A DNA stretch of 64,000 nt from an uncultured Candidatus Actinomarina sp. (GTDB lineage Bacteria; Actinomycetota; Acidimicrobiia; Actinomarinales; Actinomarinaceae), in assembly GCA_902619825.1 (NCBI GenBank), contig CACNFT010000003.1, positions 10,473-74,472 of the forward strand, in the 5' to 3' direction. This document shows positions 2,961-55,259 of this stretch, in pieces (position 1 is the first letter of the stretch; each line of letters begins with the position of its first letter). Made by a program: the position numbers and the translations under genes. The notes below the pieces were generated by a model. The model saw nothing but the letters and a program-made list of their open reading frames with translations, was not told the origin of the DNA and made no database searches.

Positions 2961-5054
2961 TTAAAAAATACTTTTTTGGGATCCAGAATTTAAATAATTT
3001 TGAGCATATATACCAGCTAATGATACGGATTTAATTTCTAACCAAGTAAACGGATTTGGTATTTCATTGTTGACATAACTAAAAAAGGTTTCAATTGTTT
3101 GTTTATGACCTTTACCATCAGAAAATACCTTGCTCTTGTCATCTGGTCCAATCAAATATCTCATTAGCTGAAAATCTTCAACAATAAATGAGTTATCATT
3201 TCCATGAATTTCAAGTCTTTCCTTCGATAAATTGTCGTTTGTGTCTGAAAAATATTGAATGGCAGCATGAGAACCGTTTGCATAATTTATATTGATGAAA
3301 ACTTGATTGTCGTAGACCTCACCTGAATCTTTATTTATTGGACTATATGAAGAAATACTTTGTGGAAGGGATTCAAAGAAATAAGTCCCAAGGTCAATTG
3401 CATGGATAGCTTCACCTACTATTCTTCCACCACCAATTTCCTTAATGTTTGTCCAATGATCTCTTTCGAGCTTTGGAACACTAAATCTAAAGTTGATTGC
3501 GTTTGCAGGGTATGTATTTAATTTTTCTTTTATAAATTGAGAAGCGTCGCTAAACCTTCTATTAAATCCCAGAAAAATTTTCGGATCTTCCGCATTATAC
3601 ATGGCTTCTTCAATTCTGGTTATTGAATCAACATCAATTGCTAAAGGTTTTTCAACATAAACAGCTTTACCAGCATTTATTGCTTTGATAACTAAATCTG
3701 CATGATTGAAATGTTGAGTAAGAACAAATACAGCATCTATTTCATCTGATTCAAATATTTCATCTTCAGTCGAGTACTTATTCTTAATTTTAAAGTTTTT
3801 TGCAAGTGTCTCAGAACTCAAACCTCCAGATGACGCAATTCCTAAAACTTGACAAGACTTTCTTAACTCCTTCAATAGAGGAATAATTGTTGTTGAGGCA
3901 AAGTTTCCAGCTCCTATAACCCCGACTTTAATTTTTTGATTATTTTCTGGAACAACATCATTTTTTTCAAATTGAATTTTTGGTTCAGTTTTTACATCGT
4001 ATCTGATTAAAACAGACAATGGTTTCTCCTCGGAATTGAATGAATTATATACCTCCGGAGATTCTTCAAAATCAATTTCGCTAGTTATCAAACCCTGAAT
4101 ACTTATTTGTCCCTGAGACAGTAATTTTAAAAATGCTTCAAAATTTCTATTCTCTGTCCAACGAACGTATTCTATAGGATAATCATTTCCAAGAACCTCA
4201 TACTGCTTGTCATATCTACCAGGTCCATAAGATTTTGATACAACCAGTTCAAGCTCCTTATAATAAAATTCATTTCTAGAAATATTTAATGGAATATCAC
4301 CAACAACAACAATTTTTGATTTATTCCTGGCAATTTTTGTTGCAGCCTCAATTGGTTCGTTGCTGTTTGAAGCAGCAGTAATAATAATGGAATCTACTTC
4401 ATCAACTGGTAAATCATCAATTGAAGGGAAAAAGTTTTTATTATCTTTTCTTCTTGTGACATCTGGATCAATTCCAAAAACTTCTGATCCTTGTGCTTCA
4501 GCTAATCTACAAACTAATTGGCCTAAAATACCTAAACCAACAACTACAATTTTTGAACCGAGAGAAGTTTCAGATAGGCGCAAACCATGCAAAGCTATGC
4601 TTCCAAGTACTGTATAAGCTGCATCTTTAGGGTTTGTTTCTTCAGGTATTCTTGAGCATAATTTTTGATTGACAACTACATACTCTGCATGATTACCGTT
4701 TGAAACAACCATATCACCTACATGAAAGTTTTTTACATCCCTGCCTACTTCTATAACTTTTCCTGAAGAACTATAACCAAGCTGGATAGGTGAAATATTT
4801 TTTGGAAATACAGCGTTCCAAACAGCCCTTACACCCTCCTTTTCCAAAAGTTCAAGACCTTTTTGAATGTTTGTAGAGTCTTGTAATTTATCGGTTACAG
4901 ACTTATTGGAAGACTCAATTGTTGCTATTTCAGTTCCAGTTGAAACTACTGAATAATGATTTTTAATTAATATCTCGCCAGGTCCAGGTTTTGGAATAGG
5001 AGTATCCCATAGAATTGGTTCGGGATTATTTATTTCAACAACTAATTGTTTCAT
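2961..5054 (-). CDS. bi-domain oxidoreductase: N-terminal MDR zinc-type alcohol dehydrogenase fused to C-terminal Gfo/Idh/MocA NAD(P) oxidoreductase
   Basis: The N-terminus has a GroES-like ADH fold and a Rossmann motif (VVVGLGILGQL). The C-terminus has GVIGAGNFA plus the VEKPLA (EKP) signature of Gfo/Idh/MocA. Confidence 0.75.
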   Translation of the reverse strand: MKQLVVEINNPEPILWDTPIPKPGPGEILIKNHYSVVSTGTEIATIESSNKSVTDKLQDSTNIQKGLELLEKEGVRAVWNAVFPKNISPIQLGYSSSGKVIEVGRDVKNFHVGDMVVSNGNHAEYVVVNQKLCSRIPEETNPKDAAYTVLGSIALHGLRLSETSLGSKIVVVGLGILGQLVCRLAEAQGSEVFGIDPDVTRRKDNKNFFPSIDDLPVDEVDSIIITAASNSNEPIEAATKIARNKSKIVVVGDIPLNISRNEFYYKELELVVSKSYGPGRYDKQYEVLGNDYPIEYVRWTENRNFEAFLKLLSQGQISIQGLITSEIDFEESPEVYNSFNSEEKPLSVLIRYDVKTEPKIQFEKNDVVPENNQKIKVGVIGAGNFASTTIIPLLKELRKSCQVLGIASSGGLSSETLAKNFKIKNKYSTEDEIFESDEIDAVFVLTQHFNHADLVIKAINAGKAVYVEKPLAIDVDSITRIEEAMYNAEDPKIFLGFNRRFSDASQFIKEKLNTYPANAINFRFSVPKLERDHWTNIKEIGGGRIVGEAIHAIDLGTYFFESLPQSISSYSPINKDSGEVYDNQVFININYANGSHAAIQYFSDTNDNLSKERLEIHGNDNSFIVEDFQLMRYLIGPDDKSKVFSDGKGHKQTIETFFSYVNNEIPNPFTWLEIKSVSLAGIYAQNYLNSGSQKSIF

Positions 5055-21539: not shown

Positions 21540-21819
21540 TTTTCTTAAACATTTCTAGTATTCGGCCAGTTACTGAAAACCCTCCAACAATATTGAGGGT
21601 TGCAAATGATATTGCAATTAAAACGATAATTTGAAGTATTTGAGATTCTCTTACTTCTGGGTATATCAGAATTGCTGCAATTAATGTAATTCCTGAAATA
21701 GCATTTGAACCAGACATAAGTGGTGTGTGTAGTGTCTGAGGAATTTTAGATATAAGTTCGTACCCAATAAAGCTTGCTAAAAAAGTTATTAACAATGTAA
21801 GTAAGAAAGTTGCTTCCAT
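21532..21819 (-). CDS. pntAB: NAD(P) transhydrogenase subunit alpha part 2 (membrane)
   Basis: 95 aa with 3 TM, lying between pntAA and pntB as in split-alpha Pnt operons. Confidence 0.8.
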   Translation of the reverse strand: MEATFLLTLLITFLASFIGYELISKIPQTLHTPLMSGSNAISGITLIAAILIYPEVRESQILQIIVLIAISFATLNIVGGFSVTGRILEMFKKND

Positions 21820-22832
21820 TATGAACTCATCTCTGTAAAAATCTCATCATCACTGTTCTCTATGTATAGTTCGATTAAATTTCTAACATTCTCCGAATAA
21901 AGCTTTGTTGCTGCATGTTTTACGGAATTTAGAATGTCTGTTTCACCAACTATTTTTACACCATTTAATTCAACAACTTTATTCACCACAGTACCTTCAC
22001 AGTTTCCACCTGTACCGGCTGCTAAATCGATAATCACAGAATTCTTTTTCATCTTTTCAATGGTTGACTTTTCGATTAAGACAGGTGCTTTTTTTCCTGG
22101 TATTTGAGCAAATGTTAAAACAATATCACTATCAATTACTTGTTTCTTTAATGCTTCTTGAATTTTCTGATTTTCTTCTTCAGAGACCTCTTGCGCATAA
22201 ACACTGTCTTGTGCTTCAGTGTTGGCTTCTACAAATTTAGCACCCAGAGATTCCACTTGATCCTTGGCTTCTTTTCTAATATCGAAAGCCCAAACTCTAG
22301 CACCAAGTCTTTTTGCAGTTGCAATTGCTTGAAGGCCTGCAACCCCAACTCCTAAAATCAGGACCTTGGAAGGTTGAATATTTCCTGCAGCAGTTGTCAT
22401 CATTGGTACTACATCAGATGTCTCTTTTGCAGCTCTTAAAACTGATGCGTATCCAAGCAAGTTAGCTTGAGAAGATAGAGCATCTAAATTTTGAGCTCGT
22501 GAAATTCTAGGTAGTTTGAAGAAACTCAATATCTTGATATCAGGTCTTAATTTTTTAATTTCTTCGATCTTTTCGAAATCAAATATGCCAATAAGGACTG
22601 CTCCTTCCTTCAAACCCTTAATTGTTTTATTTTCAATATTTTCTACGCAGGCGATAACATCTAAATCACTTAATTTAGAAATAGTCTTTACATTTTCTTG
22701 TTTAGAATCTGGATAATTAAGGTAATCAAATATATTTTTTTCTAAATGCAGGTCCATAGAATATTTCTCAAAAGATTCAGGGTGTATTGGAGCCCTATAT
22801 CCATCAACATCTGTTAAAAACCCAATATTCAT
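21819..22832 (-). CDS. pntAA: NAD(P) transhydrogenase subunit alpha part 1 (alanine dehydrogenase-like dI)
   Basis: AlaDh_PNT N- and C-terminal domains with the Rossmann motif VLILGVGVAGLQAIATAKRLGA. Confidence 0.9.
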   Translation of the reverse strand: MNIGFLTDVDGYRAPIHPESFEKYSMDLHLEKNIFDYLNYPDSKQENVKTISKLSDLDVIACVENIENKTIKGLKEGAVLIGIFDFEKIEEIKKLRPDIKILSFFKLPRISRAQNLDALSSQANLLGYASVLRAAKETSDVVPMMTTAAGNIQPSKVLILGVGVAGLQAIATAKRLGARVWAFDIRKEAKDQVESLGAKFVEANTEAQDSVYAQEVSEEENQKIQEALKKQVIDSDIVLTFAQIPGKKAPVLIEKSTIEKMKKNSVIIDLAAGTGGNCEGTVVNKVVELNGVKIVGETDILNSVKHAATKLYSENVRNLIELYIENSDDEIFTEMSS

Positions 22833-22880
22833 TATTTTATTTTATTCCTATTAAGAGTTATATATAAATAAACTTAAAAG

Positions 22881-23921
22881 ATGAGAATTGCTGTATTTGC
22901 TGATAAATTTTCTGGAACACTTACATCCGATGAAGTTATTGGTGAGATAAAAAAGATATTTAAATATAACAATATTAAATCATCATTCTTTCCAGTTACA
23001 GATGGTGGTGAGAACTCAACAGAGATATTTAAAGAATATGGTTTTGAAACACAACAGATGTCTATGAAACAAGATTTTTCTGGCAAATGGTTGCCTGTCG
23101 AGACTTTAAAAGTAAATAAAAATATATACATTGAAACCTCTCAGCTAATAGGTATAAAAAATACAAATGATTTATCTTTAGATCTAAATACATCATGCCT
23201 TGCAAAAATAATTGAGGATGTAGATATTTTATCAATGGGAGGCTCTAGAACAAATGACGCTGGAATAGGTTTACTCAGCAAAATGGGAATTGATTTTCTA
23301 AATAATAAAGATGTAATAGAAGATCCAAAGCCAAAAGATTTCAAATTAATAAACAATATAAAAATTAATGAGAGTTTTAAAAAACTTAATAAAAAAGTTT
23401 TAATCGATACAAATATTCCACTACTTGGTAACAACAATGCTTTTAAAGTATTTGGACCTCAAAAAGGGTTGGCAAATAGTGAAATTAAATTTTTGGAAAA
23501 AAATGTTGAGAGAATTTTGAATTTACTTTCTAATGAAATGGATAGTTCATTAGATCCATTTAAAGAAGGGACTGGTGCCTCTGGTGGTTTAAGTTTTGCA
23601 TTGGGTGAGGTACTTGGATGTGAAATAATCTCAGGTCCTCAATTCTTTTTAAATGAGACAAAACTATTAAGTAAAATAAATGATTTTGAAATTGCGATCT
23701 TATGTGAAGGAAAATTTGATTTTTCATCTATGAATGGAAAAGTTCTTGGAGAGATTTTAAAGCTTCATACTGGGCAGACTTATTTTTTAGGTGGCAAGTT
23801 TGACTACAATGATGAAAGTATCTTTACAGATACATTTGAATTAGGTAATAAAGGTATGAAAAATTCAAAAAAAGCATTAAGAGATTCGGCATATACATTG
23901 GCTAAAAAGATAGGTAAATAG
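22881..23921 (+). CDS. glxK: glycerate kinase
   Basis: Glycerate kinase I family pattern: M+IA...DKF.G.L.s, DGGE and GASGGLSFALG. Confidence 0.65.
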   Translation: MRIAVFADKFSGTLTSDEVIGEIKKIFKYNNIKSSFFPVTDGGENSTEIFKEYGFETQQMSMKQDFSGKWLPVETLKVNKNIYIETSQLIGIKNTNDLSLDLNTSCLAKIIEDVDILSMGGSRTNDAGIGLLSKMGIDFLNNKDVIEDPKPKDFKLINNIKINESFKKLNKKVLIDTNIPLLGNNNAFKVFGPQKGLANSEIKFLEKNVERILNLLSNEMDSSLDPFKEGTGASGGLSFALGEVLGCEIISGPQFFLNETKLLSKINDFEIAILCEGKFDFSSMNGKVLGEILKLHTGQTYFLGGKFDYNDESIFTDTFELGNKGMKNSKKALRDSAYTLAKKIGK

Positions 23922-23922
23922 G

Positions 23923-24171
23923 ATGACTATTACCTCTCCCTGTATAAATGTTTGTGTGACTGATCCAGATACTGATTTGTGTTACGGGTGTTCAAGAACA
24001 TCAAAAGAAATTAAAGAATGGTCAAAATATAACGATGAAGAACAATTAAAAGTTATTGAAATAAGTCGTAACAGAATGGATGGGTGGCAACGTAAAGCAT
24101 TTGATAAAGCATATAAAGAAAAAGTTGAGACCGGAACAAGTCCTTTAAAAAAACAGAAATTACAGGATTAG
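23923..24171 (+). CDS. DUF1289 family Fe-S/Cys-cluster protein
   Basis: [27 protein letters not shown] matches the DUF1289 (YdhL-like) motif. Confidence 0.7.
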
Positions 24172-25877
24172 AAACCTGGTTCTTCCAAACCAAGACTTAG
24201 GTAGACCATCCTTAACAAGTCTTTAAATGCTTGGTCAAAATAGTAATCAACTGTAGAGTCTTGGTCTAATCCATACCACCAAAACCAGTCTGAGCCTTCG
24301 GCTAACAACATGTATTCGTACGCTTGGTTTATTTGTTCATCAGAGTAATCTCCTGATTTTTTTGCCTCTTCAAAATCTATTCTGGTTTGATAAAGAAGAT
24401 CCCAAGCCTGATTTTCATCAGTCTCACCAATCCAGGTTGCAAAATTTGGTTGGAACCAAGATGAAGGATAAAGTTCATCGATCGTATCAAGACTGTCACC
24501 ATACATTTTCAAATAATCACTAGGAGTTATAGTCTCTAACCAATCATATTTTGTAAGGACTGTATACATTCCATTTAAAAAGTCGATGCCATCATTTGGA
24601 TAGTTCTCCCAAAAATTTTCACCATCAGCAATTATTGAAACAACTGGAACAAAATCTAACTCAGAAGTTTTTTCACGTAATTTTAAAATCGTATTTTCAA
24701 ATTCTTTAACAGAGAGGTCTGACCTTTTTTCTGAGTAATCAAACATTTTGTCAGATAGATAATTATCTCTAAAAAATATTGGTATTTTTTCACCATTAGA
24801 CAGTACTGTGTTCCAGGGTCGATATAATAATTCTGGCTTAGAAGCTACTCCCCCAACCCATCTTTGAATTTTTACATCTAGTGATTTCTCTAAAGGGTTT
24901 TGTCCAGTTGCTATCCAAGAAATATCTTCATCGTTGAAATATTGAAGGACTTCCTGGGCAACTGCACCTTCAGCTGGCCACATGCCATTGGGATAAAATC
25001 CAAAATTTTCAAAGAAGATATCTTTTCCCTTCTTAACATGGGCTCTCGCATCATCTTCAAAATTAAAAGTATTATTTGGAAAATCTGATACTGTATCTCC
25101 TTTTTTTCCCAAATCTGAGTTATGTATTAAGGGTAAAATAGGATGTGCAAATGGTGTTGTAATCAGCTCTATGTGATTATTTTTATATGCATAAAGATGT
25201 TCAGGTATAACTTTATCAATGAGTTCATTGTGAATTTCAAGAATTATTTTTTTATCTGCTTCAGAAAAATTACTACCTTTTTCTACAATCTTATTCAATG
25301 GATCTAATGATAGATATTTTGGATCAGTCCATCCAAGATTAAATAGAACTTGAAGATCAATATAGTCCTGTGTGGTCCAGTCTTGAGGATTTTGTCTAAG
25401 GTTTCTGAGTTCAACAAAGCGAGGATATGTATTAATGATTCTTGAGTTGATATCAAAAAATCTGTCTCTTAGAAAATCTTTTTGTTCGTCTGTAAGCTTG
25501 TCAGCTTCAACCTCTGTATGAACCCAATAGATATCTCTAGATCCATTTGAGAGCTCATTTAATTGATTCATTAATGTTGGTGTCAAATTAAACGTAACCC
25601 GAAGTCCTTCAAAATCTTGGACCATTTCAACCATATCAAGATAATCTTTTGTTGCGTGAAGTCGGACCCATGGCTTTGAAAAATTTCCATCAGTGTCTTT
25701 AGGATAATAGGGCTGATGCTGATGCCACAGTAACATCACATAAAGCTCTGGGGAGTCTTTTGTTTCTTCAATTATTAACTCTGTTGTTGGGGTAATTACT
25801 TCTTCTACCGTTTCATTACTTGAAGTTTGAGAACAAAAAGTAAAAAAGAGTATCAACAATATTGAATACTTTTTCAT
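24168..25877 (-). CDS. glycoside hydrolase family 57 (alpha-glucan-active) lipoprotein
   Basis: N-terminal signal/lipobox ([10 protein letters not shown]). GH57 region I WHQHQPYY, and [14 protein letters not shown] with [12 protein letters not shown] typical of GH57. Confidence 0.6.
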
Positions 25878-34120: not shown

Positions 34121-35031
34121 TCGAAATGGACCCAGTCAAGTAAGTCATCGAACCATACACCATCAATCCATGGATAAGTCCAGTTCCAACCTGGGCCTCT
34201 AAATAAAATACCTATAAGACTTAATGTTCCAGCACCTGCAAGAAAAAAGGTCCACAACATTATTGCATACTTTCTTTTTGAAGGCTTATTTTCTTTATTT
34301 CGATCAATATATGGAATTGCCATAAATGCTGCAACACCAATTAGAAGAGGTATCATCACACCTGCGATCTGTGGATCCCAATAGGAGAGTAATTCTTGTA
34401 ATCCTAAAAAGTACCATGGTGCTTTTGCAGGGTTTGGTGTAATATTTGGATTTGCTTCTTCTAATAAAGGAGCTTGCAAAATTGCACTTATAAAAATCAA
34501 AAACGCTGTCATTGCCATTAATGAAATAAACTCTGGCAACATTAGATGAGGCCATGTGTTTACTTTATCAACTGGTTCAGAAGTTGGTTTTTGTATTGGC
34601 TTTGCTTTGACTACTGTAAGCAACCTTTGTGTTACTTTTGTCTCAGGAGCAAAATCTACTTCGGTAGGTACCTGTCCATTTGATTTTTCAGGTGCAGGAG
34701 CTGGTGCTTCTTTGACTGCAGACGCTGCTGCTGGTGTTTCTTTGACCTCAGCTGCTGGTGGCGCTGTTTCTTTGACTTCAGCTGCTGGTGGTGGTGTTTC
34801 TTTGACTTCAACTGCTGGTGGCGCTGTTTCTTTGACCTCAGCTGCTGGTGGCGGTGTTTCTTTGACTTCTACTTCAATTGGAGTAACTTCAATTACATCT
34901 GGTTCTTTCTCAATTTTGGTAGGTTGTACTTCACCTCTCATTTCAGCCAGAGCTTGTTCAACTGAAATACCTAAGGCCTTGGCTCTTGCTTCTGCAGTTT
35001 TTAATAATAAATGTTCTGGAATATCAACCAT
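34117..35031 (-). CDS. cytochrome b C-terminal half (b6f subunit IV-like) with N-terminal helical module and a Pro/Ala-rich repeat linker
   Basis: C-terminal NPNITPNPAKAPWYFLGLQELL matches the conserved P-E-W-Y region of cytochrome b / SUIV. The N-terminal ~40 aa (LLLKTAEARAKALGISVEQALAEM) are hydrophilic. Contains 5x AEVKETPPPA repeats. Confidence 0.75.
   Translation of the reverse strand: MVDIPEHLLLKTAEARAKALGISVEQALAEMRGEVQPTKIEKEPDVIEVTPIEVEVKETPPPAAEVKETAPPAVEVKETPPPAAEVKETAPPAAEVKETPAAASAVKEAPAPAPEKSNGQVPTEVDFAPETKVTQRLLTVVKAKPIQKPTSEPVDKVNTWPHLMLPEFISLMAMTAFLIFISAILQAPLLEEANPNITPNPAKAPWYFLGLQELLSYWDPQIAGVMIPLLIGVAAFMAIPYIDRNKENKPSKRKYAIMLWTFFLAGAGTLSLIGILFRGPGWNWTYPWIDGVWFDDLLDWVHFE
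34711..34870 (-). repeat. about 5 tandem copies of a 30-bp repeat encoding AEVKETPPPA inside the SUIV-like gene
   Basis: The unit TTTGAC(C/T)TCAGCTGCTGGTGG(C/T)G(C/G)TGTTTC recurs at 30-bp periodicity. Confidence 0.85.
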
Positions 35032-37021: not shown

Positions 37022-38425
37022 ATGAGAATAAAAATTTTTCCAAAAAATGAACAAGCGTTTTCAAAATTTTTTATTGTTTTAACTCCACTTTTTTTGCTTC
37101 TTTTAGGAACTATTGCATTAACGAAAGAGGCTTATTTCATTTTTGCAGCCATACTCCCTCAAAATAGTTTTCTCAATAGTGGATATTTAGAAAAACTAAA
37201 TAACCATATAACTTACAATTTGATGCTTTCATTTTTAATTGTGTTTTTGACTGTTTACTTATTACCAAAAACACTTGGAAGAAAATTAATAATATTCCCA
37301 ATTTTTTTTCTAACTTCATTAGGAGTTATTGGATTGGAGTCACTTGATCTATTATTAGGAATATTATTTCCTAATAGTTTTTTGTTCTTTGGAAATACTA
37401 GTTATACATTAATTTTTAAAATTTTAATATTTTTTGCCTTTGTTGGACTCATTATTTTAAATATATTGGCCAAAAAAGAAGCTTCTCTGTTTGTTAGTAG
37501 TCAGTATCTTTTTGGTGCAAGTATTTTTTATTTGATATCACTTCTAATTTATAGGGCTGATTTTGTTGTATTTAGCGACAATTTTTTCATTAATTCAATG
37601 TATGTTTCAACACATATATATGTCGGATATTCGTTCGTATTTCTATCATTACTTCATTTCATGATTACAAAAGGTATAAATGCTACGTTATACAGTAAAA
37701 CATTAGGATCTATTGGATTTTGGGGATTCTTGTTTCTTATTCCTTGGTCAAATTTTAAATTTTACTTTGGTTCTGTATTGCCAAATTGGATAGAAAATAT
37801 ATCTCTTTATTTGTCTATGAGTTTGTCTCTCCCACTGCTTGCTATAGCTGTAAATTTCTTCAGAACGGTTTCAACGAGAATTGAGGAAAATAAAGTAATT
37901 TATAGTCTTATAAGTTTCTCGTTTGGGATATTTGTTATAACAAATATCTTTCAAATTGTGTCCTCGCTCTCAAATATCATTCCCATATTGAGTCTTACAA
38001 ATTTTGAGATAGCAATTAGATATGGATATGTTTTCAGTGCAATATTAATTACAATCTCGTTTGTTTATTATCTGATTCCTAAAATCTTTGGAAGAGAAGT
38101 CAAATTTTCAAGGCTTGAATCTTTAACTAGTTTTCTATTAAAACTTGTGGTGTCTTTAACATTATTTTCTAATGCTTTAATCGGAATTATTTCTGGTTAC
38201 TCATGGAATGCTGGTGCCAATGCAGGAAACCCAACAATCTATGGTGAAGGGTTCAGTTTATTGTGGTCACTAATCAGTACTCCTTTAACGCTAAATATGT
38301 TTTTATCTTTGACATTACTTCTGCCATTTCTGTTGTTTTTCATTTCAGTCGTCAAGGCTGTAGTAAATGGAGAAATTACAGAAGCAGAAACAATTGAACT
38401 TACTGAAGAGGAGCTTCCAGTATGA
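37022..38425 (+). CDS. polytopic membrane protein (about 12 TM) of unknown function, first gene of a cytochrome c operon
   Basis: 467 aa. Overlaps the next gene by 4 nt. One segment (VYYLIPKIFGREVKFSRL) vaguely recalls a cbb3 CcoN helix, but the His metal ligands are absent. Confidence 0.45.
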   Translation: MRIKIFPKNEQAFSKFFIVLTPLFLLLLGTIALTKEAYFIFAAILPQNSFLNSGYLEKLNNHITYNLMLSFLIVFLTVYLLPKTLGRKLIIFPIFFLTSLGVIGLESLDLLLGILFPNSFLFFGNTSYTLIFKILIFFAFVGLIILNILAKKEASLFVSSQYLFGASIFYLISLLIYRADFVVFSDNFFINSMYVSTHIYVGYSFVFLSLLHFMITKGINATLYSKTLGSIGFWGFLFLIPWSNFKFYFGSVLPNWIENISLYLSMSLSLPLLAIAVNFFRTVSTRIEENKVIYSLISFSFGIFVITNIFQIVSSLSNIIPILSLTNFEIAIRYGYVFSAILITISFVYYLIPKIFGREVKFSRLESLTSFLLKLVVSLTLFSNALIGIISGYSWNAGANAGNPTIYGEGFSLLWSLISTPLTLNMFLSLTLLLPFLLFFISVVKAVVNGEITEAETIELTEEELPV

Positions 38426-38620
38426 GTGAACTCTTAAGTAAAGTTGCTGAATTATTAAACGCGCCAGAATCATTGGTGCAACGATCTGCTGAAGCAAGAG
38501 CAGAGGCCTCTGGAAGAACTGTAGATGAAGTTTTACAATCCTGGGCTGGAGGAGAGTCTGTGGCTGCTGCAGAAAAACCTGTCGAAGAAACACCTCCTGT
38601 GGAAGAAGTGGCACAACCTA
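38422..38620 (+). repeat. 199-bp perfect direct repeat, copy 1 (5' end of the first cytochrome c gene)
   Basis: Identical to 39236-39434. The antisense shadow ORFs 38345-38614 and 39210-39428 encode the same peptide, which confirms the identity. Confidence 0.9.
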
Positions 38621-39243
38621 TAGAGAAACCTGTAGAAACATCAGAAGAGGAAAAAGATGAAGAACAAGAATCAACTGAAGAATCATCAATTGTTTTTGAT
38701 GAAAATGTTTCTGAATTGATTACGGAGGTATTAATAGAAGAAGAAAATGTTGCAGTAAAAAAAGAAAGTTCGATTGGATTTATTGCCGGTGTAATTGGAG
38801 TAGTTGTCTTTACATACCTATTTGCTTTCTCAATACCAAAACAACAAAGCGAGGAATTAGTCAGACAATCTTTAAATAATTCAATTCAAGTTAGTGATGA
38901 TATATTAAAAGGAGCAATTGTGTATAACCAATTAAATTGTCAATCATGTCATACACAAAATGTAAGAATACTTATTCCTGATTCACAAAATGGAAAAATA
39001 CTAAAAAATCAACTTGCAGATAAAAATATTATAGAAAATACTGGGTTACTTAGATTAGCTACTGACCTATCAACATTTGGAAATAGGGAGCCAATAAACC
39101 AAAAAGCATGGCTACAAAGATATTTAACTCAACCTTCCTCTGTAAGAGAAGAAATACCCCATCCATCAGTAAATTTCCTTACCGATCAAGATTTAGATTA
39201 TTTGATAACTTATTTATTATCTTTAGGAAGTACAAATGAGTGA
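38422..39243 (+). CDS. membrane-anchored mono-heme cytochrome c with N-terminal cytoplasmic helical module
   Basis: CQSCHT heme site, one TM (IGFIAGVIGVVVFTYLFAF), and an N-terminal 66 aa identical to the next gene. Confidence 0.7.
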   Translation: MSELLSKVAELLNAPESLVQRSAEARAEASGRTVDEVLQSWAGGESVAAAEKPVEETPPVEEVAQPIEKPVETSEEEKDEEQESTEESSIVFDENVSELITEVLIEEENVAVKKESSIGFIAGVIGVVVFTYLFAFSIPKQQSEELVRQSLNNSIQVSDDILKGAIVYNQLNCQSCHTQNVRILIPDSQNGKILKNQLADKNIIENTGLLRLATDLSTFGNREPINQKAWLQRYLTQPSSVREEIPHPSVNFLTDQDLDYLITYLLSLGSTNE

Positions 39244-39434
39244 ACTCTTAAGTAAAGTTGCTGAATTATTAAACGCGCCAGAATCATTGGTGCAACGATC
39301 TGCTGAAGCAAGAGCAGAGGCCTCTGGAAGAACTGTAGATGAAGTTTTACAATCCTGGGCTGGAGGAGAGTCTGTGGCTGCTGCAGAAAAACCTGTCGAA
39401 GAAACACCTCCTGTGGAAGAAGTGGCACAACCAG
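39236..39434 (+). repeat. 199-bp perfect direct repeat, copy 2 (5' end of the second cytochrome c gene)
   Basis: See copy 1. Confidence 0.9.
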
Positions 39435-40186
39435 TTGATGAAAAAAAAGATGTAGAGGAACCCAAAGAAGAGTCTGTAGAAATAATCAAGAATGAGAGCG
39501 AAAAATTACCAACTGTATCTTCTCAAACAAATATAAAAAAAGTTATACAAAAAGTATCTTTTGCAAATAAGACATTGGATATAAAGGTAAATGCGGAAAC
39601 ATCTTTGCCGAGATGGCTAAATTTTAGTTTTGTATTTATTCCTCTCTTTATTGTTATTGGGATAATCAATACATCATCGACACAAGAATGTGGGGAGAAT
39701 GGAATTTTAGATGTTGATCGAAAAACTCAATTAACTGTGAATTGTGATGGATCGCCATTTGAAGGTAAAGGTGTTGGATCTGCAAGCTCAATAAACTATA
39801 TCGCACTTGGACAACAAGTTTATTCTGGCGCTGCTGCTTGTGCTGGTTGTCATGGAGTAAATGGTGGCGGCGGGGTAGGTCCTGCATTTACAGGTGGAGA
39901 GCTTTATACAACTTTTCCAACTTGTAGTGATCATGCATTGTGGATTGAACTTGGTTCTGCAGGTTGGCAGGCTGAAATTGGACCCGCATATGGAGCAGAG
40001 AATAAAGTATCAATCGGCGGAATGCCCGGATTTGTAGGAAAACTTACTGAAGATGAGATTTACGCAGTTGTGGTTTTTGAAAGAGTAGTATTTGGTGGTG
40101 GAAATACTGACGAAGTACTCGAAGACTGTGGACTTCTTGAAACAGATGAGGAAATCACTACAGAAGCTATTGAGCCAACTGGTTAA
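39236..40186 (+). CDS. membrane-anchored mono-heme cytochrome c, paralog of the upstream gene
   Basis: CAGCHG heme site, one TM, and the same N-terminal 66 aa module as the previous gene. Confidence 0.7.
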   Translation: MSELLSKVAELLNAPESLVQRSAEARAEASGRTVDEVLQSWAGGESVAAAEKPVEETPPVEEVAQPVDEKKDVEEPKEESVEIIKNESEKLPTVSSQTNIKKVIQKVSFANKTLDIKVNAETSLPRWLNFSFVFIPLFIVIGIINTSSTQECGENGILDVDRKTQLTVNCDGSPFEGKGVGSASSINYIALGQQVYSGAAACAGCHGVNGGGGVGPAFTGGELYTTFPTCSDHALWIELGSAGWQAEIGPAYGAENKVSIGGMPGFVGKLTEDEIYAVVVFERVVFGGGNTDEVLEDCGLLETDEEITTEAIEPTG

Positions 40187-50800: not shown

Positions 50801-51288
50801 CATTTGAACCACGAGGAATGGTTGAAGGACATGAAAATATAAAAATGAGTAATTCCATTGTTGATTATGTCTTTAGAGCTTTGGGCTTAGAATATTTGAA
50901 TAGAACAGATATTGTACAAAACCCACCTGAGGAATCTGCTTCAGCTCCTGTTGAGGAAGCTACTTCAGCTCCTGTTGAGGAAGCTACTTCAGCTCCTGTT
51001 GAGGAAGCTGAACCAGTAGTTGAGGTAAAAGAATCAGATCCTCCGAGCAGTTCTAAAGCGACAGAAGTTTCAAATGAAGTACAAGAAGTACAGTTTGTTA
51101 CAAAAGTTAAAGAGGTAGAAGCTTTAGACACAACTGAGGCTACTTCAAATTCAGTCACTACAGTACAAGAAGTTCTTGGTGATATGATGGGTGATGCCCC
51201 TGCATGTCCTGATTGTGGTCACATAACAATAAGAAATGGTTCTTGTTACAAATGTCTTAATTGTGGAAACTCTTTGGGTTGCAGCTAA
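47899..51288 (+). CDS. nrdJ: class II (adenosylcobalamin-dependent) ribonucleotide reductase with C-terminal zinc ribbon
   Basis: 1129 aa with N-terminal NrdJ conservation and a GTG start. C-terminal CPDCG...CYKCLNCG zinc ribbon preceded by SAPVEEAT x3 repeats. Confidence 0.9.
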   Translation: MAKNTGLKINRKYTSPGDPYKDIVWEKRSSRITNPDGSVVFEMNNVEIPSTWSQVATDIMVSKYFRKAGVPQTDENGNELKDDNGNAVLGPETSSKQVFNRLAETWRHWGEETGYFASTEDAQAFEDELKYMLATQMAAPNSPQWFNTGLNYKYGLTGKPQGFWYVDPSTGELTAGEDSYSRPQPHACFIQSIDDDLVNEGGIMDLWVKEARLFKFGSGTGTNFSNLRGEGEKLSGGGVSSGVMSFLKIGDRAAGAIKSGGTTRRAAKMVILDLDHPDIEDFIEWKAIEEDKARALINAGYPSDYNGEAYATVSGQNSNNSVRVPNEFIKALETDGDWELTARTDGSTMKTVKARELWNKIADAAWRCADPGVQFNTTINEWHTSPAGGQIRASNPCSEYLFLDNTACNLASLNLVKFYDDDNQVFDVASYKHALRIWTVVLEISVEMAQFPSKEIAQGSYDYRTLGLGYANLGSLLMRKGIAYDSELGRAIAGALTAMLTGEAYKASAEMASIVGPFPKYSENKENMLRVMGNHRKAAYDSGDYVGISHDLLAIDQDLCPDDLLKGAQESWDGALELGEEHGYRNAQATVLAPTGTIGLLMDCDTTGVEPDFALMKFKKLAGGGYMKIANQSIGPALNALGYTNQQTEEIIQYVIGSMSLDGAPFINKETLIDKGLNDQDIENIENSLPGAFEIQHAFNVFVVGEETMQRLNIQEEEYTSFDFNLLEKLGFTKTEIAEANKFICGTQTIEGALHLKDEDLSVFDCANKCGKDGERFIHYMGHVRMMAAAQPFISGAISKTVNMPNEATIEDIENCYFESAGLGIKAIAIYRDGSKASQPLSASSDDGESEETDPQVSEIIENESMLMHGNYPAGTSPTKAYAGTTRPRFLLPERREGWTQEAKIAGHKVYLRTGEYPDGTLGEVFIDIAKEGATLKGVLGCFAIAVSKGLQYGVPLEEFVDTFTFQTFEPRGMVEGHENIKMSNSIVDYVFRALGLEYLNRTDIVQNPPEESASAPVEEATSAPVEEATSAPVEEAEPVVEVKESDPPSSSKATEVSNEVQEVQFVTKVKEVEALDTTEATSNSVTTVQEVLGDMMGDAPACPDCGHITIRNGSCYKCLNCGNSLGCS
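50938..51010 (+). repeat. 27-bp tandem repeat (about 2.7 copies) encoding ASAPVEEAT in the nrdJ C-terminal linker
   Basis: GCTTCAGCTCCTGTTGAGGAAGCTACT is repeated head to tail. Confidence 0.85.
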
Positions 51289-54078: not shown

Positions 54079-54152
54079 GGGCGCTTAGCTCAGTCCGGCA
54101 GAGCGCTTCCCTTACAAGGAAGAAGTCACAGGTTCAAATCCTGTAGCGCCCA
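54079..54152 (+). tRNA. tRNA-Val (anticodon TAC)
   Basis: Acceptor GGGCGCT/AGCGCCC, D-loop AGCTCAGTCCGGCAGAGC, anticodon loop CTTACAA and T-loop GGTTCAAATCC. No encoded CCA. Confidence 0.85.
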
Positions 54153-54247
54153 CAAGGGTTTTTCAGAAATCTTTACATATATATACTCAAAAGACACCTA
54201 AAAGACACCGCTTCTGTAGAGTTTCATTTGGTAACATACATTTAGTT

Positions 54248-54769
54248 ATGGAATTAGATTTTGAATTTGAGTTAAGCAAAGGAAAACAGAACTCACTTGG
54301 AGAGACATTAAAAGTAGTAGAACATATTCAAAACAATATAAAAGAAATTGATAAATTATTCTTATGTTTTTTTTCTAACAATTCTTTAGTTGCAATGAGA
54401 GCTATGAATGCAACAAAAAGAATAATAAAAGGTGATAATCATATTTTTGTTGAAAATAAAAAAAGATTCATAGATGAGTTTTCAGAGTCTGAACATAATG
54501 TAGTCAAACTTGGGCTTATTACAATTTATTATGATTTCATTTCATATTTTGACGATAAAGAATACAAAGTTATTAGTAAAAATGCAATGAGTTGGGTGGA
54601 AAATAGTAAAGACTGGATGATACTTGCTCAAGGTTTAAAACTTCTAGAAAAATTATCCAATTCAGACGAAATATTGAAGTCAAATGTTATAAGTATCGCA
54701 AGACAGTTAAAGAATGATGAAAGAAAAGCTGTTAGATCTCAGGCACAAAAAATTTTAAAAGACACCTAA
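54248..54769 (+). CDS. hypothetical all-alpha (HEAT-like) protein inside the tRNA-Val-flanked cassette
   Basis: 173 aa hydrophilic protein. It is bracketed by AAAAGACACCTAAAAGACACC direct repeats, and its stop codon lies inside the downstream copy. Confidence 0.45.
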   Translation: MELDFEFELSKGKQNSLGETLKVVEHIQNNIKEIDKLFLCFFSNNSLVAMRAMNATKRIIKGDNHIFVENKKRFIDEFSESEHNVVKLGLITIYYDFISYFDDKEYKVISKNAMSWVENSKDWMILAQGLKLLEKLSNSDEILKSNVISIARQLKNDERKAVRSQAQKILKDT

Positions 54770-54892
54770 AAGACACCAAAATTTTCTAAAACTGTAGATA
54801 CTCTCTGATAACCTCTGATATCTTTCTGAAAAAGCTTACGTTCGTTGACTCTATAAATTGATACTCTCTGATATTACCAAGTATTTAATGGC

Positions 54893-54950
54893 TCTTTCCT
54901 TACAAGGAAGAAGTCACAGGTTCAAATCCTGTAGCGCCCACTAGGGTTTT
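54893..54950 (+). repeat. duplicated 3' fragment of tRNA-Val (anticodon stem to acceptor end) plus about 35 bp of flank
   Basis: TTCCTTACAAGGAAGAAGTCACAGGTTCAAATCCTGTAGCGCCCA is identical to the 3' part of the tRNA at 54079-54152. The flanks GGGTTTTTCAGAAATCTTTA(C/T)ATATATAT are also conserved. Confidence 0.8.
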
Positions 54951-55259
54951 TCAGAAATCTTTATATATATATGTGCCTCAACCCCACATTTTGCTTAAAT
55001 TTTTGTAAACTTTAAATTATGAAATACAAAAAAAACTTAGGTGCTTTATTAGTTTTTTTAGCTTTAACCGGGCAAGCATTTGGCTCTCTTAACTCTAGCT
55101 ACACTCCAACTCAAGCAATTCTTGTTGTTCTGTTTGCGTATCTTGGAATTCAATTAACTTACTTCGTTTATTTTAAAAATAACTAAGACGAGTGCGAAAA
55201 AATTAATTTAAACCCCTTGAATTTATAAATTCACAGAATTTTGGAATTATAATACTTCT

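Follow-up and report, generated by a model that had tools for sequence, protein, structure and literature searches.

Gene cassettes bounded by partial tRNA-Val copies at the start of a flexible genomic island in Candidatus Actinomarina

Among the closest known systems to the locus described here is the additive flexible genomic island fGI1 of Candidatus Actinomarinales (Lopez-Perez 2020, mSystems, PMC7771536), together with the HVR of a study with 84 complete Actinomarina genomes (Nielsen and Lui 2026, bioRxiv). In the former, fGI1 is described as an island in which tRNAs are the targets of cassettes and partial tRNAs form direct repeats, and no identifiable mobile elements are reported in these genomes (Lopez-Perez 2020, PMC7771536). 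In outline, the phenomenon is already described for the Actinomarina taxon. The words “integrase” and “recombinase” are absent from PMC7771536, and “integrase,” “recombinase” and “mobile” from the preprint of Nielsen and Lui (2026); furthermore, the accessible portions of both contain no 250-bp attachment (att) module, no doublets, no mention of the absence of a recombinase, nothing on the defence content of the tRNA-Val array and no relocated core gene.

The window, which is the whole 64-kb stretch of DNA that was analysed, has its closest genome matches in Actinomarina/OCS155 single-cell genomes. Low GC and tRNA islands would also bring Prochlorococcus to mind, an assignment that these matches set aside. 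Genes for a ribonucleotide reductase, a membrane protein and a flavin oxidoreductase lie upstream of its tRNA-Val gene; past this gene the GC content drops to 0.23-0.29, and methyltransferase, GT2 and large membrane-protein genes follow. The region corresponds to fGI1 both as a low-GC envelope-glycosylation island at a conserved place in the Actinomarinales genome and in having cassettes that are inserted at the island tRNA and end in a partial tRNA repeat. The cassette under study stands at the start of this island, in agreement with one option of the first-pass annotation of this DNA, which had considered it the edge of a hypervariable island.

The tRNA-Val gene, its partial copy and the cassette in the window

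The features of the locus are as follows.

54079-54153, + strand: intact tRNA-Val(TAC), attL side (ARAGORN; Rfam tRNA 54079-54152, 73.8 bits)
54106-54110 and 54118-54122, + strand: anticodon stem of tRNA-Val, with the loop CTTACAA at 54111-54117 (read from the sequence)
54154-54188, + strand: proximal flank of the P' arm, with a conserved 19-nt block AAGGGTTTTTCAGAAATCT followed by 16 class-specific nt TTACATATATATACTC
54189-54209, + strand: left 11-bp tandem doublet AAAAGACACCT AAAAGACACC
54210-54247, + strand: leader 5' of the cassette ORF, partly common to the second cassette of L005
54248-54769, + strand: cargo ORF, 173-aa conserved HEAT-repeat protein
54757-54777, + strand: right doublet, the same as the left one, containing the stop codon of the ORF
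54778-54898, + strand: P arm, made up of a 14-nt spacer and, after it, the conserved 108-nt arm; junction AGTATTTAATGGCTCTTTCC
54797-54810, 54807-54820 and 54860-54873, + strand: three CTCTGATA motifs inside the P arm
54899-54972, + strand: partial tRNA-Val from the anticodon loop to the 3' end (54899-54941) and copy of the 31-nt flank (54942-54972), attR side
54980-54987, + strand: single doublet-like unit AACCCCAC
55019-55186, + strand: 55-aa small membrane-protein gene (p55), after AACCCCAC

The intact tRNA gene had already been recognized at 54079-54152, and both programs recovered it there, ARAGORN with one more nucleotide. Its 3' part is repeated together with the flank: 54103-54184 matches 54891-54972 over 82 nt with 95% identity and the similarity stops at 54972, so that the repeat formerly placed at 54893-54985 is real and its extent has to be redrawn. 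The 36-mer running from the anticodon stem to the 3' end has exactly two exact copies in the 64 kb against zero expected. In Rfam the second copy (54876-54932) reaches 28 bits, below the gathering score of 29, and its anticodon hairpin is lengthened to ~8 bp. At both ends of the cassette the tRNA 3' part is present as a direct repeat, and at one end the tRNA is intact, as in tRNA-targeting integrative elements of the tyrosine-integrase type; those elements, unlike this cassette, contain an integrase gene. Placed by the start of identity with the partial copies, the crossover region would be the anticodon loop at 54111-54117.

As the first-pass annotation stated, the repeats enclose one 173-aa ORF (54248-54769), encoding the HEAT-repeat protein, and no integrase: motif scans and phmmer found none within the cassette or elsewhere in the 64-kb window. 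The ORF is flanked by two exact copies of the 21-mer AAAAGACACCTAAAAGACACC (54189-54209 and 54757-54777); these had been noticed with coordinates off by one (54188-54209 and 54756-54777), and the second copy does include the stop codon, TAA at 54767-54769. The 10-mer of the doublet occurs four times in the window, each time at this cassette, against an expectation of 0.22. The 14-mer GATACTCTCTGATA, previously reported at 54796-54809 and 54860-54873, is indeed present twice, the first time at 54797-54810, and a third copy with two mismatches lies at 54807-54820; from the window alone, with two mismatches allowed, this count is not significant (three of 100 shuffles give three matches), and in 74 distinct cassette arms at other loci its positions are 78-100% conserved. 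No terminal inverted repeats were found, the cassette ends being direct repeats, so that the locus does not belong with transposons or MITEs. A scan of the cassette for promoters and terminators gave sites no more frequent than in shuffled sequence.

The gene p55 is the first island gene beyond the array here and in several other loci, and it comes after a partial tRNA in L001, L052, L061, L104, L106 and L129; it is probably an older, fixed cassette.

Cassette arrays and doublets at other loci

The locus was compared with five relatives (L001-L005) and 120 metagenome loci, among which presence/absence polymorphism is found at one site. Relatives carry additional cassettes of 2-3.4 kb between tRNA-Val and the cassette with the 173-aa ORF (ORF173): a cassette of 1.9 kb in L001 and one of 3.4 kb in L004 separate the full tRNA from the ORF173 cassette, L002 and L109 have the same arrangement as the window, and in L048, L086 and L073 the ORF173 cassette occupies other ranks of the array. 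The insertions in L001 and L004, compared with the window, fall exactly at the tRNA, which bears out the attL/attR footprint of integration at a tRNA 3' part that had been proposed from the window. The first-pass annotation had also suggested comparing relatives and looking for the motifs at other mobile loci, on the grounds that a fixed arrangement and motifs lacking elsewhere would speak for a tandem duplication; the insertions are polymorphic, and the motifs are present at other mobile loci.

In the 120 metagenome loci, 71 complete cassettes of 0.18-4.8 kb were delimited, in arrays holding up to six partial tRNAs. They have a common layout, consisting of the tRNA 3' part, the 19-nt flank, an 11-bp doublet, the cargo, a matching doublet, the conserved 108-nt arm and the next partial tRNA, and in more than 100 other loci differing cargo lies between identical end types. 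Each cassette contains one to a few genes, mostly a single one, mostly co-oriented, and the cargo consists mostly of restriction and other defence genes. Conservation at flank positions +1 to +19 ranges from 64 to 97% in 147 distinct copies and mostly exceeds 80%; of the 50 cassettes in which the arm was found, 46 have its start 108 nt ahead of the next core, and most columns are more than 85% conserved in the 74 distinct arms. Brought together as they would be in a circle, the ends form a complex site of ~250 bp made of doublet, 14 nt, 108-nt arm, anticodon-loop core TTACAAGG, tRNA 3' part, 19-nt flank, 16 nt and doublet, in which the core dyad surrounds the anticodon loop. The cassette ends are the two halves of this attachment site. 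Recombinase-borrowing elements (CIME, IMEX) likewise have a complete att site at either end and lack recombination genes, and the option of a miniature non-autonomous element, raised from the window, is supported in that many such cassettes exist, all without an integrase and with ends that are complete and conserved in length. Folding the consensus of 69 modules gave nothing beyond the two tRNA hairpins: there was no long palindrome, no covariation and no sign of a structured RNA or an attC-like fold. Neither circular nor empty-site forms were observed among the loci examined. An observation going beyond the first-pass annotation is that the two short motifs described there belong to the ~250-bp att module common to all cassettes.

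The direction of growth of the arrays can be read from their junctions. In L001, the flank and doublet of the incoming cassette follow the full tRNA, and the displaced partial copy retains the old flank and doublet, an arrangement that fits the logic of B-O-P' and P-O-B' sites; more generally, the P'-arm flank moves together with the cassette on its right when junctions are compared between loci. On this comparison, the intact tRNA is evidently the entry point of new cassettes, each of which arrives with its own tRNA 3' part, flank and left doublet, and the older cassette is pushed outward by the newcomer behind a partial tRNA; the resulting arrays contain from one to five or more cassettes.

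The doublet has the same position in nearly all cassettes and occurs in at least 12 variants, each retaining the 11-bp tandem form on a fixed frame. Across the cargo, left and right doublets agree: their distance is at most 1 in 44 of 48 cassettes, the random mean is 3.1 and none of 5000 permutations reaches the observed value. Across a partial tRNA copy, none of 11 pairs matches. Many different cargos are found with one doublet type, and the GACACC doublet is also present after tRNA-Arg(CCT) in L044 with another cargo. Furthermore, a hybrid doublet in L001 has a junction inside it that joins two non-identical variants, L005 has the order doublet-ORF173-doublet-ORF300-doublet and L105 has an empty module with one doublet; these traces of recombination inside doublets show that doublets do more than bind an arm domain. 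In L003, a deletion at a microhomology took out a partial tRNA, an instance of decay at the same locus.

The cargo gene and the search for a recombinase

The 173-aa protein has 423 homologues, with identities from 99 to ~50%, and 55 invariant columns. It has no credible Pfam or PHROG match (weak, sub-threshold ones only) and no PDB sequence match; its AF2 model is all-helical (pLDDT 95), and the structural matches are only generic HEAT, TOG and adaptin ones. With a dN/dS of 0.21 between the window and L007, the gene is under purifying selection. Its usual home is empty in the window:

23923-25877: usual home of the 173-aa gene, empty here, with DUF1289 at 23923-24171 (+ strand) and a glycoside-hydrolase-like gene at 24168-25877 (- strand)

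The order ORF173-DUF1289-glycerate kinase-pntAB is seen in L007 and L008-L011. In the window, DUF1289 and the glycoside-hydrolase-like gene overlap by 4 bp (24168-24171) where the 173-aa gene usually sits, and the empty site was confirmed by tblastn and by the window sequence itself. The cargo of the window is no defence gene: it is a conserved HEAT-repeat core gene that has moved out of its normal chromosomal position. The identity of the ORF as a relocated core gene had not been part of the first-pass annotation.

A recombinase was sought in 645 kb, and none was found, in the window or in any array, by motif scans and by phmmer with four query sequences (XerD, lambda Int, Cre and a resolvase). 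The best weak XerD match, in L041, is a ketopantoate hydroxymethyltransferase and not a recombinase. The Pfam families listed for 70 cargo proteins and 10 end-adjacent ORFs include no recombinase, and no ORF or ORF fragment of at least 70 aa in the cassettes has an integrase match or motif. In viral contigs, four exact patterns (42-mer core, attR junction, 25-mer T-arm and arm motif) returned nothing, or unrelated high-GC or chance matches; blastn against 50,697 phage records returned only unrelated phage tRNA-Val genes, so that neither search turned up an element with this att. Two candidate helpers are on record in the literature. One is a phage fragment that has an integrase together with an att of 43 bp, identical to Actinomarina tRNA-Val (PMC3861242), although this att could belong to another tRNA-Val isoacceptor; the other is a 24-kb prophage in the tRNA-Val of AH-324-A03.

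Explanations and comparison with known systems

In our reading, to which we give a probability of roughly 0.6, the feature is one of the cassettes residing at a tRNA-Val(TAC) integration hotspot where the cell-envelope island fGI1 begins; it would be a non-autonomous element of attP type whose movement depends on a tyrosine integrase acting in trans, from a gene that is not linked to it and is probably carried by a phage. Since no integrase was found, its key enzyme is one that we infer: recombination would be carried out by a tyrosine integrase encoded elsewhere, the likeliest source being a temperate phage or another element targeting the same tRNA-Val. Crossover would take place in the 7-nt anticodon loop between the inverted arms of the anticodon stem, the doublets may serve as arm-type sites and the CTCTGATA repeats as binding sites of accessory or excision factors. 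If the doublets are arm-type sites, their 12 or more variants require many arm specificities. Also speaking against this reading are the viral searches that yielded no element with this att, the GACACC doublet after tRNA-Arg(CCT), the recombination inside doublets and the fact that neither circles nor empty sites were observed. More tentatively, and with clearly lower confidence, the arrays might form an integron-like gene bank of Actinomarina built on tRNA instead of attI/attC, in which gene-sized cassettes lacking recombinases each carry a full complex attP and an 11-bp “address” on both sides of the cargo, in at least 12 compatibility classes common to different tRNA hotspots; such a bank would store anti-phage genes and could capture chromosomal genes, with recombinases acting in trans and possibly coming from the very phages defended against.

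An unlikely alternative is that homologous recombination alone is at work today, without any site-specific enzyme. The ~190-250 bp att modules would then be fossils of old integrations, now used as portable homology in double crossovers after DNA uptake, and homogenised by unequal crossing-over and gene conversion. The failure to find a recombinase in the 645 kb agrees with this, as do the report of no identifiable mobile elements in these genomes (Lopez-Perez 2020, PMC7771536) and the short-repeat events seen in the L001 hybrid doublet, the L003 deletion and the L105 empty module; variable doublets would stay linked to their cargo simply by their position at the edge of a conserved block. Left unexplained, however, are the same variant in the left and right doublets of a cassette, the 11-bp tandem form on a fixed frame in each variant and the base-exact length of the arm, and the modules must still have originated by site-specific integration.

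Rather improbable, in our opinion, is a system of two layers, in which the tRNA core integrates whole modules and a second enzyme swaps the doublet-cargo-doublet unit between modules, requiring identity at the variable positions in the manner of lox or FRT spacer variants. It would account for the agreement of left and right doublets, the crossover inside the L001 doublet, the order in L005, the empty module with one doublet, the GACACC doublet with other cargo at tRNA-Arg(CCT) and the many cargos of a single doublet type. However, slippage or short-homology deletion between 21-bp direct repeats explains all of these events too, and the L001 junction united non-identical variants. Moreover, the doublets are direct tandem repeats, whereas the tyrosine and serine recombinases that are known act on inverted pairs; no enzyme of this kind was found, nor is one known.

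It is very improbable that the cassette is what decay has left, a single gene, of a larger island or prophage that once had an integrase, the scar that the first-pass annotation had considered. The lack of an integrase between attL and attR and the decay that does happen at this locus, for example in L003, are compatible with it, but both ends are intact, the cargo lies flush against intact arms in the 71 cassettes, their ORFs and fragments of at least 70 aa are free of integrase matches and motifs, and the cargo here is an intact core gene under selection (dN/dS 0.21). A simple ancient tandem duplication of the tRNA region without mobility, in favour of which there is the repeat itself and nothing else, is refuted by insertions that vary between close relatives and by the more than 100 other loci with different cargo between the same ends, and has next to no credibility.

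In streamlined ocean bacteria, among them Actinomarina, SAR11 and Prochlorococcus, large flexible gene pools go together with a near absence of recognisable mobile elements, which raises the question of how genes are acquired. The locus supplies a concrete unit of exchange, a cassette the size of a gene that has a defined recombination site of 250 bp, lacks an enzyme and is present in many variants in ocean metagenomes, and it points to a helper integrase. Furthermore, the tRNA-Val array is a store of defence genes in a 1.1-Mb genome previously said to be devoid of such systems, and a core gene is documented that has entered the mobile compartment. As for the 11-bp doublets, their co-variation could reveal either many integrase arm specificities or a second layer of recombination.

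Several known mobile systems share part of this organization. The tycheposons of Prochlorococcus (Hackl et al., bioRxiv 10.1101/2020.12.28.424599) likewise belong to a streamlined marine bacterium, with islands seeded at tRNAs and scattered partial tRNAs. They differ in having their own tyrosine recombinase and often replication genes, neither of which is found in the Actinomarina cassettes. Integrons, especially the sedentary chromosomal ones that store defence cassettes, resemble the arrays in their small, mostly single-gene and mostly co-oriented cassettes without a recombinase of their own, in the position of the newest cassette beside the primary site and in keeping defence genes in the array. 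However, integrons have intI, attI and Pc by the array, whereas no tyrosine recombinase was found in the 64-kb window or next to the arrays, and each of their cassettes has an attC hairpin, which is absent from the fold of the 69 modules and in place of which there is a complex site of attP type around a tRNA fragment.

By analogy, the module is comparable to the complex attP of lambda and mycobacteriophage L5 in its length of ~250 bp, its core dyad, a putative crossover in the anticodon loop of a tRNA, the paired direct repeats of ~10-11 bp towards the outside of either arm and the further repeats in one arm. In these phages, excision factors bind in the arm with the further repeats; the repeats here may have a similar binding role, and the Actinomarina sites differ in that the outer repeats come in many sequence variants and have no adjacent integrase gene. 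CIMEs, the cis-mobilisable elements of streptococci, and IMEX, which use XerCD, are flanked by functional att sites, are devoid of integration genes, and build up tandem arrays through accretion at one site. The Actinomarina cassettes share this att-flanked, integrase-less form with tandem accretion; unlike CIMEs, which derive from and move with ICEs, and IMEX, which use dif, they are gene-sized and very numerous units that occupy a tRNA site.

The tRNA-Val repeat and its cassette

The cassette lies between an intact tRNA-Val and a partial copy of it, and it is built from doublets (tandem pairs of 11-bp units flanking the cargo) and an arm, the conserved block that precedes the next core, i.e., the anticodon-loop region of the tRNA. 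Its elements in the window are:

54079-54153: intact tRNA-Val(TAC), Rfam 73.8 bits
54189-54209 and 54757-54777: exact copies of the 21-mer doublet AAAAGACACCTAAAAGACACC
54248-54769: sole ORF between the tRNA copies, 173 aa
54797-54810 and 54860-54873: arm motif GATACTCTCTGATA, with a degenerate third copy at 54807-54820

The repeated tRNA part is an 82-nt block (54103-54184) that spans the tRNA from the anticodon stem (5' strand) to the 3' end, plus 31 nt of the downstream flank, and its second copy is found at 54891-54972 with 95% identity. The central 36-mer occurs exactly twice in the 64 kb, where no occurrence is expected, and the 10-mer doublet unit four times, always at this locus, against 0.22 expected; the stop codon of the ORF falls within the second copy of AAAAGACACCTAAAAGACACC. 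All the elements listed in the first-pass annotation (tRNA, partial repeat, ORF and short motifs) are present, with coordinates that were off by 1-2 bases, and the long repeat, which had been extended to 54985, ends at 54972. The attL/attR footprint recognized there is genuine; the pair encloses a non-autonomous cassette, and the site is a known hotspot.

A 16-nt inverted repeat (54823-54838 and 54942-54957, 88% complementary) flanks the partial tRNA, with one half in the arm (TTTCTGAAAAAGCTTA) and the other in the flank (TAGGGTTTTTCAGAAA); it did not come out as a conserved stem and may, therefore, be a protein site that occurs in both orientations. Elsewhere in the window, a 197-nt direct repeat of 100% identity (38422-38618 and 39236-39432, spacing 814) gives two neighbouring genes, beside a 467-aa membrane protein, the same first ~65 codons:

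38422-39243: cytochrome-c-type gene, CxxCH motif
39236-40186: cytochrome-c-type gene, CAGCH motif

The tandem paralogues could have undergone gene conversion recently, or the repeat could be an artefact of the assembly. In-frame coding tandem repeats are located at 50928-51009 and 34657-34896; a repeat with a 24-nt period lies in the C-terminal linker of the class II ribonucleotide reductase, with a different repeat number in the related locus L003, and another gene holds a coding repeat with a 30-nt period.

Insertion polymorphism and the shared att module

The genomes closest to the window are single-cell assemblies of Candidatus Actinomarina/OCS155. The locus variability raised in the first-pass annotation is visible among five genome loci (L001-L005) that carry the 173-aa gene at 98-100% identity in differing arrangements. 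L002 matches the window. In L001 a 1.9-kb cassette follows the full tRNA, and the 173-aa cassette comes after it, now preceded by a partial tRNA; a 3.4-kb cassette occupies this position in L004. An additional gene separates the 173-aa gene of L005 from the partial tRNA, which has been lost in L003. The full tRNA of L001 carries the flank and doublet of the incoming cassette, and the displaced partial copy retains those of the window type. Recombination of attB with attP, with the crossover 5' of the tRNA 3' part, would give a left junction B-O-P' and a right junction P-O-B', and this predicted outcome is the junction arrangement of L001.

The 3.4-kb cassette of L004 (539-3685) has three minus-strand genes, whose products are a 766-aa Hsp70/MreB-like ATPase, a coiled-coil protein of 195 aa and a protein of 103 aa; this is possibly a multi-gene defence system. 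In the same locus a ~51-nt unit (AAATCTTTACATATATATAGAAAAATTGGCACTTTGGCTGATTTTGTACAA) is duplicated in tandem after a degenerate partial tRNA (4700-4840), and beyond it lies a further, more diverged tRNA-Val-like 3' fragment (4930-4971). The 173-aa cassette of L041 (contig Ga0255751_10000608) and a partial tRNA-Val(TAC) adjoin ordinary chromosomal genes (typA, an aldo-keto reductase gene and panB), which are 10 kb from a tRNA-Val(GAC), and upstream there is no conserved arm; this is a rearranged or different genomic context.

Scanning of metagenome contigs for the partial-tRNA junction AGTATTTARTGGYTCTTTCCTTACAAGGAAG gave at least 120 loci. Among the matches listed and the genome loci there are at least 71 complete intervals between consecutive tRNA cores, of 178-4834 bp, and among the matches listed arrays reach five or six partial tRNAs per contig (L021, L086, L059). 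Nearly every cassette has one order of elements: tRNA 3' part, 19-nt flank AAGGGTTTTTCAGAAATCT, ~16 class-specific nt, doublet of 11-bp units, cargo, the same doublet again, a 14-nt spacer, the conserved arm and the next core. In the matches listed and the genome loci the arm was found in 50 cassettes, and in 46 of them its start is 108 nt ahead of the next core. Most of its columns, including three CTCTGATA motifs and the junction sequence, are more than 85% conserved over the 74 distinct arms among the matches listed; a minority of cassettes carries an arm of another family, in which the geometry is unchanged. The short motifs, whose recurrence beyond the window had been left to be searched for, are found, as doublets and arm motifs, in cassettes at other loci.

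In the partial tRNA copies the anticodon hairpin is extended to ~8 bp around TTAC(AA), giving a dyad of the kind used by the core-binding domains of tyrosine integrases; fold analysis of the module revealed no structure besides the anticodon hairpin/tRNA, and no covariation. When the cassette ends are joined head to tail, a ~250-bp site results, with the core in the centre and a doublet at each outer edge, which is the layout of a complex attP, as in lambda and mycobacteriophage L5.

Doublet pairing, cargo and the relocated core gene

The doublet unit has a fixed frame (four A, two variable positions, C, one variable, C, two variable; period 11) and at least 12 variants: GACACC, GACACAC, ACCGCAC, ACCCCAC, GACCCAC, GACGCAC, CACCCAC, GACCCGC, TGACGCCC, TGACACAC, CCCCTAC and AGTCACT. 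The left and right variants of one cargo differ by a distance of 0 or 1 in 44 of 48 non-redundant cassettes among the matches listed, a value reached in none of 5000 permutations (mean distance of random pairs, 3.1), and none of 11 pairs is that close across a partial tRNA, from a right doublet to the left one of the next cassette. Furthermore, L001 contains a hybrid doublet (2683-2706; first unit of the CCGCAC type, second of the CCCCAC type) exactly at the fusion of two cassettes, where arm, partial tRNA and flank have been lost and whose second partner is found alone in locus L065; L005 has the order doublet-ORF173-doublet-ORF300-doublet, ORF173 being the 173-aa gene, and locus L105 has an empty 178-bp module with a single doublet. 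These arrangements indicate that recombination occurs within the doublets. The doublets may be the sites of a second recombination requiring identity at the variable positions, which would account for the left-right pairing of variants as well as for the swaps, but such recombination has no known enzyme. Alternatively, they may be arm-type integrase sites; this would account for their position, but it demands many specificities.

The same GACACC doublet AAAAGACACCTAAAAGACACC follows, after 24 nt, a tRNA-Arg(CCT) in locus L044 (5-121), with a different cargo encoding an HNH-like protein, and this unit terminates at a partial tRNA-Val that retains only the last ~22 nt of the arm; therefore, cassette ends are common to two tRNA hotspots. 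tRNA-Arg(CCT) is likewise close to the Val array in loci L030 and L054. At the left end of a 4.1-kb cassette in locus L100, the doublet variant AAAGTCACTAAAAAGTCACT resembles the AAGTCACA stretch of the tRNA core and also the lambda arm-type consensus (C/A)AGTCACTAT; this resemblance is a lead only and not evidence.

In the matches listed and the genome loci, 104 cargo ORFs form 88 clusters; 73 point in the direction of the tRNA, and the distance from the core to the start of the first ORF is usually 60-140 nt. By Pfam and PADLOC, the cargo is mainly defence: GmrSD (four), Mrr with ResIII helicase, HNH, SAD/SRA, NucS-like, type I R-M subunits, N6 methylases, Schlafen/AlbA_2, T5orf172/GIY-YIG, trypsin-like proteases and an Hsp70-like ATPase. 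Surface-related cargo comprises an AT3-SGNH acyltransferase and fn3 and collagen repeats.

The 173-aa protein has 423 homologues (99 to ~50% identity, 55 invariant columns) and a confident, all-helical HEAT-type model (pLDDT 95) with only generic structural neighbours; it has no credible match in Pfam, PHROG or PDB sequences. In lineages at 89% (L006, L007) and 63% identity (L008-L011), its gene adjoins DUF1289, glycerate kinase and pntAB, with neither tRNA nor doublets nearby. The corresponding region of the window is:

21819-25877: native neighbourhood (pntA, glycerate kinase, DUF1289, glycoside-hydrolase-like gene)
23923-24171: DUF1289
24168-25877: glycoside-hydrolase-like gene, convergent with DUF1289

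The last two genes overlap by 4 bp and, therefore, the 173-aa gene is absent from this locus: the cassette of the window carries a core gene that has been relocated. The cassette copy is homologous to the native locus from a few bases before the ATG to the last three codons, at which the first unit of the doublet starts, and it is under purifying selection relative to that of L007 (dN/dS 0.21, dS 0.25). Since identity to L007 is 91% for pntA but only 44% for glycerate kinase and 52% for the hydrolase, which is also shorter, the native locus may have been overwritten by a foreign allele lacking the 173-aa gene. The second cassette of L005 (4569-5471) encodes a 300-aa NucS_C/PD-(D/E)xK-like nuclease; its gene has a homologous 38-nt leader and the same first five codons (MELDF) as the 173-aa gene, which suggests that cargo was replaced within an existing cassette frame.

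Recombinases, the hotspot and related systems

We infer that an enzyme recombines the cassettes, and the cognate integrase anticipated elsewhere was not found in the window and 133 loci (645 kb), in which scans for tyrosine and serine recombinase motifs gave nothing. In 1220 ORFs, phmmer searches for relatives of XerD, lambda Int, Cre and gamma-delta resolvase likewise gave nothing, and Pfam analysis of 70 cargo proteins and 10 ORFs adjoining the array ends showed no integrase or transposase among the families listed, where a weak hit could be hidden because one table gives 25 of 33 families. Candidate helpers come from the literature: a phage fragment in which an integrase lies 173 bp from a 43-bp att identical to Ca. 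Actinomarina tRNA-Val (Mizuno et al., 2013, PMC3861242) and, in Lopez-Perez et al. (2020, PMC7771536), a 24-kb prophage in the tRNA-Val of AH-324-A03 and two 'IS' elements within a boundary tRNA of fGI1, the additive flexible genomic island of Candidatus Actinomarinales. Pattern scans of viral contigs and blastn against phage records revealed no element with this att.

Downstream of the tRNA the GC content drops from ~0.31-0.39 to 0.23-0.29, and the region there, with genes for a methyltransferase, a family-2 glycosyltransferase and large membrane proteins of the multi-pass type, is fGI1, the envelope-glycosylation island. Cassette insertion at the tRNA is a known phenomenon for this taxon, because the available portions of two papers describe the tRNA-bounded island: tRNA-targeted insertion at fGI1 was reported by Lopez-Perez et al. 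(2020, PMC7771536), and the tRNA-bounded hypervariable region was confirmed in 84 complete genomes (Nielsen and Lui, 2026). Those portions contain no discussion of the recombinase, site structure or content of this array. "Already described in outline" is true of the hotspot; four features of the anatomy appear to be new, namely a complete complex att site carried by gene-sized cassettes without a recombinase, doublets that co-vary across the cargo and are common to different tRNA sites, the defence content of the tRNA-Val array, and the capture of a core gene by a cassette. Both defining features of the integron, intI and attC, are missing from the array, but in function it is like the chromosomal, defence-storing integron, in that it stores defence cassettes.
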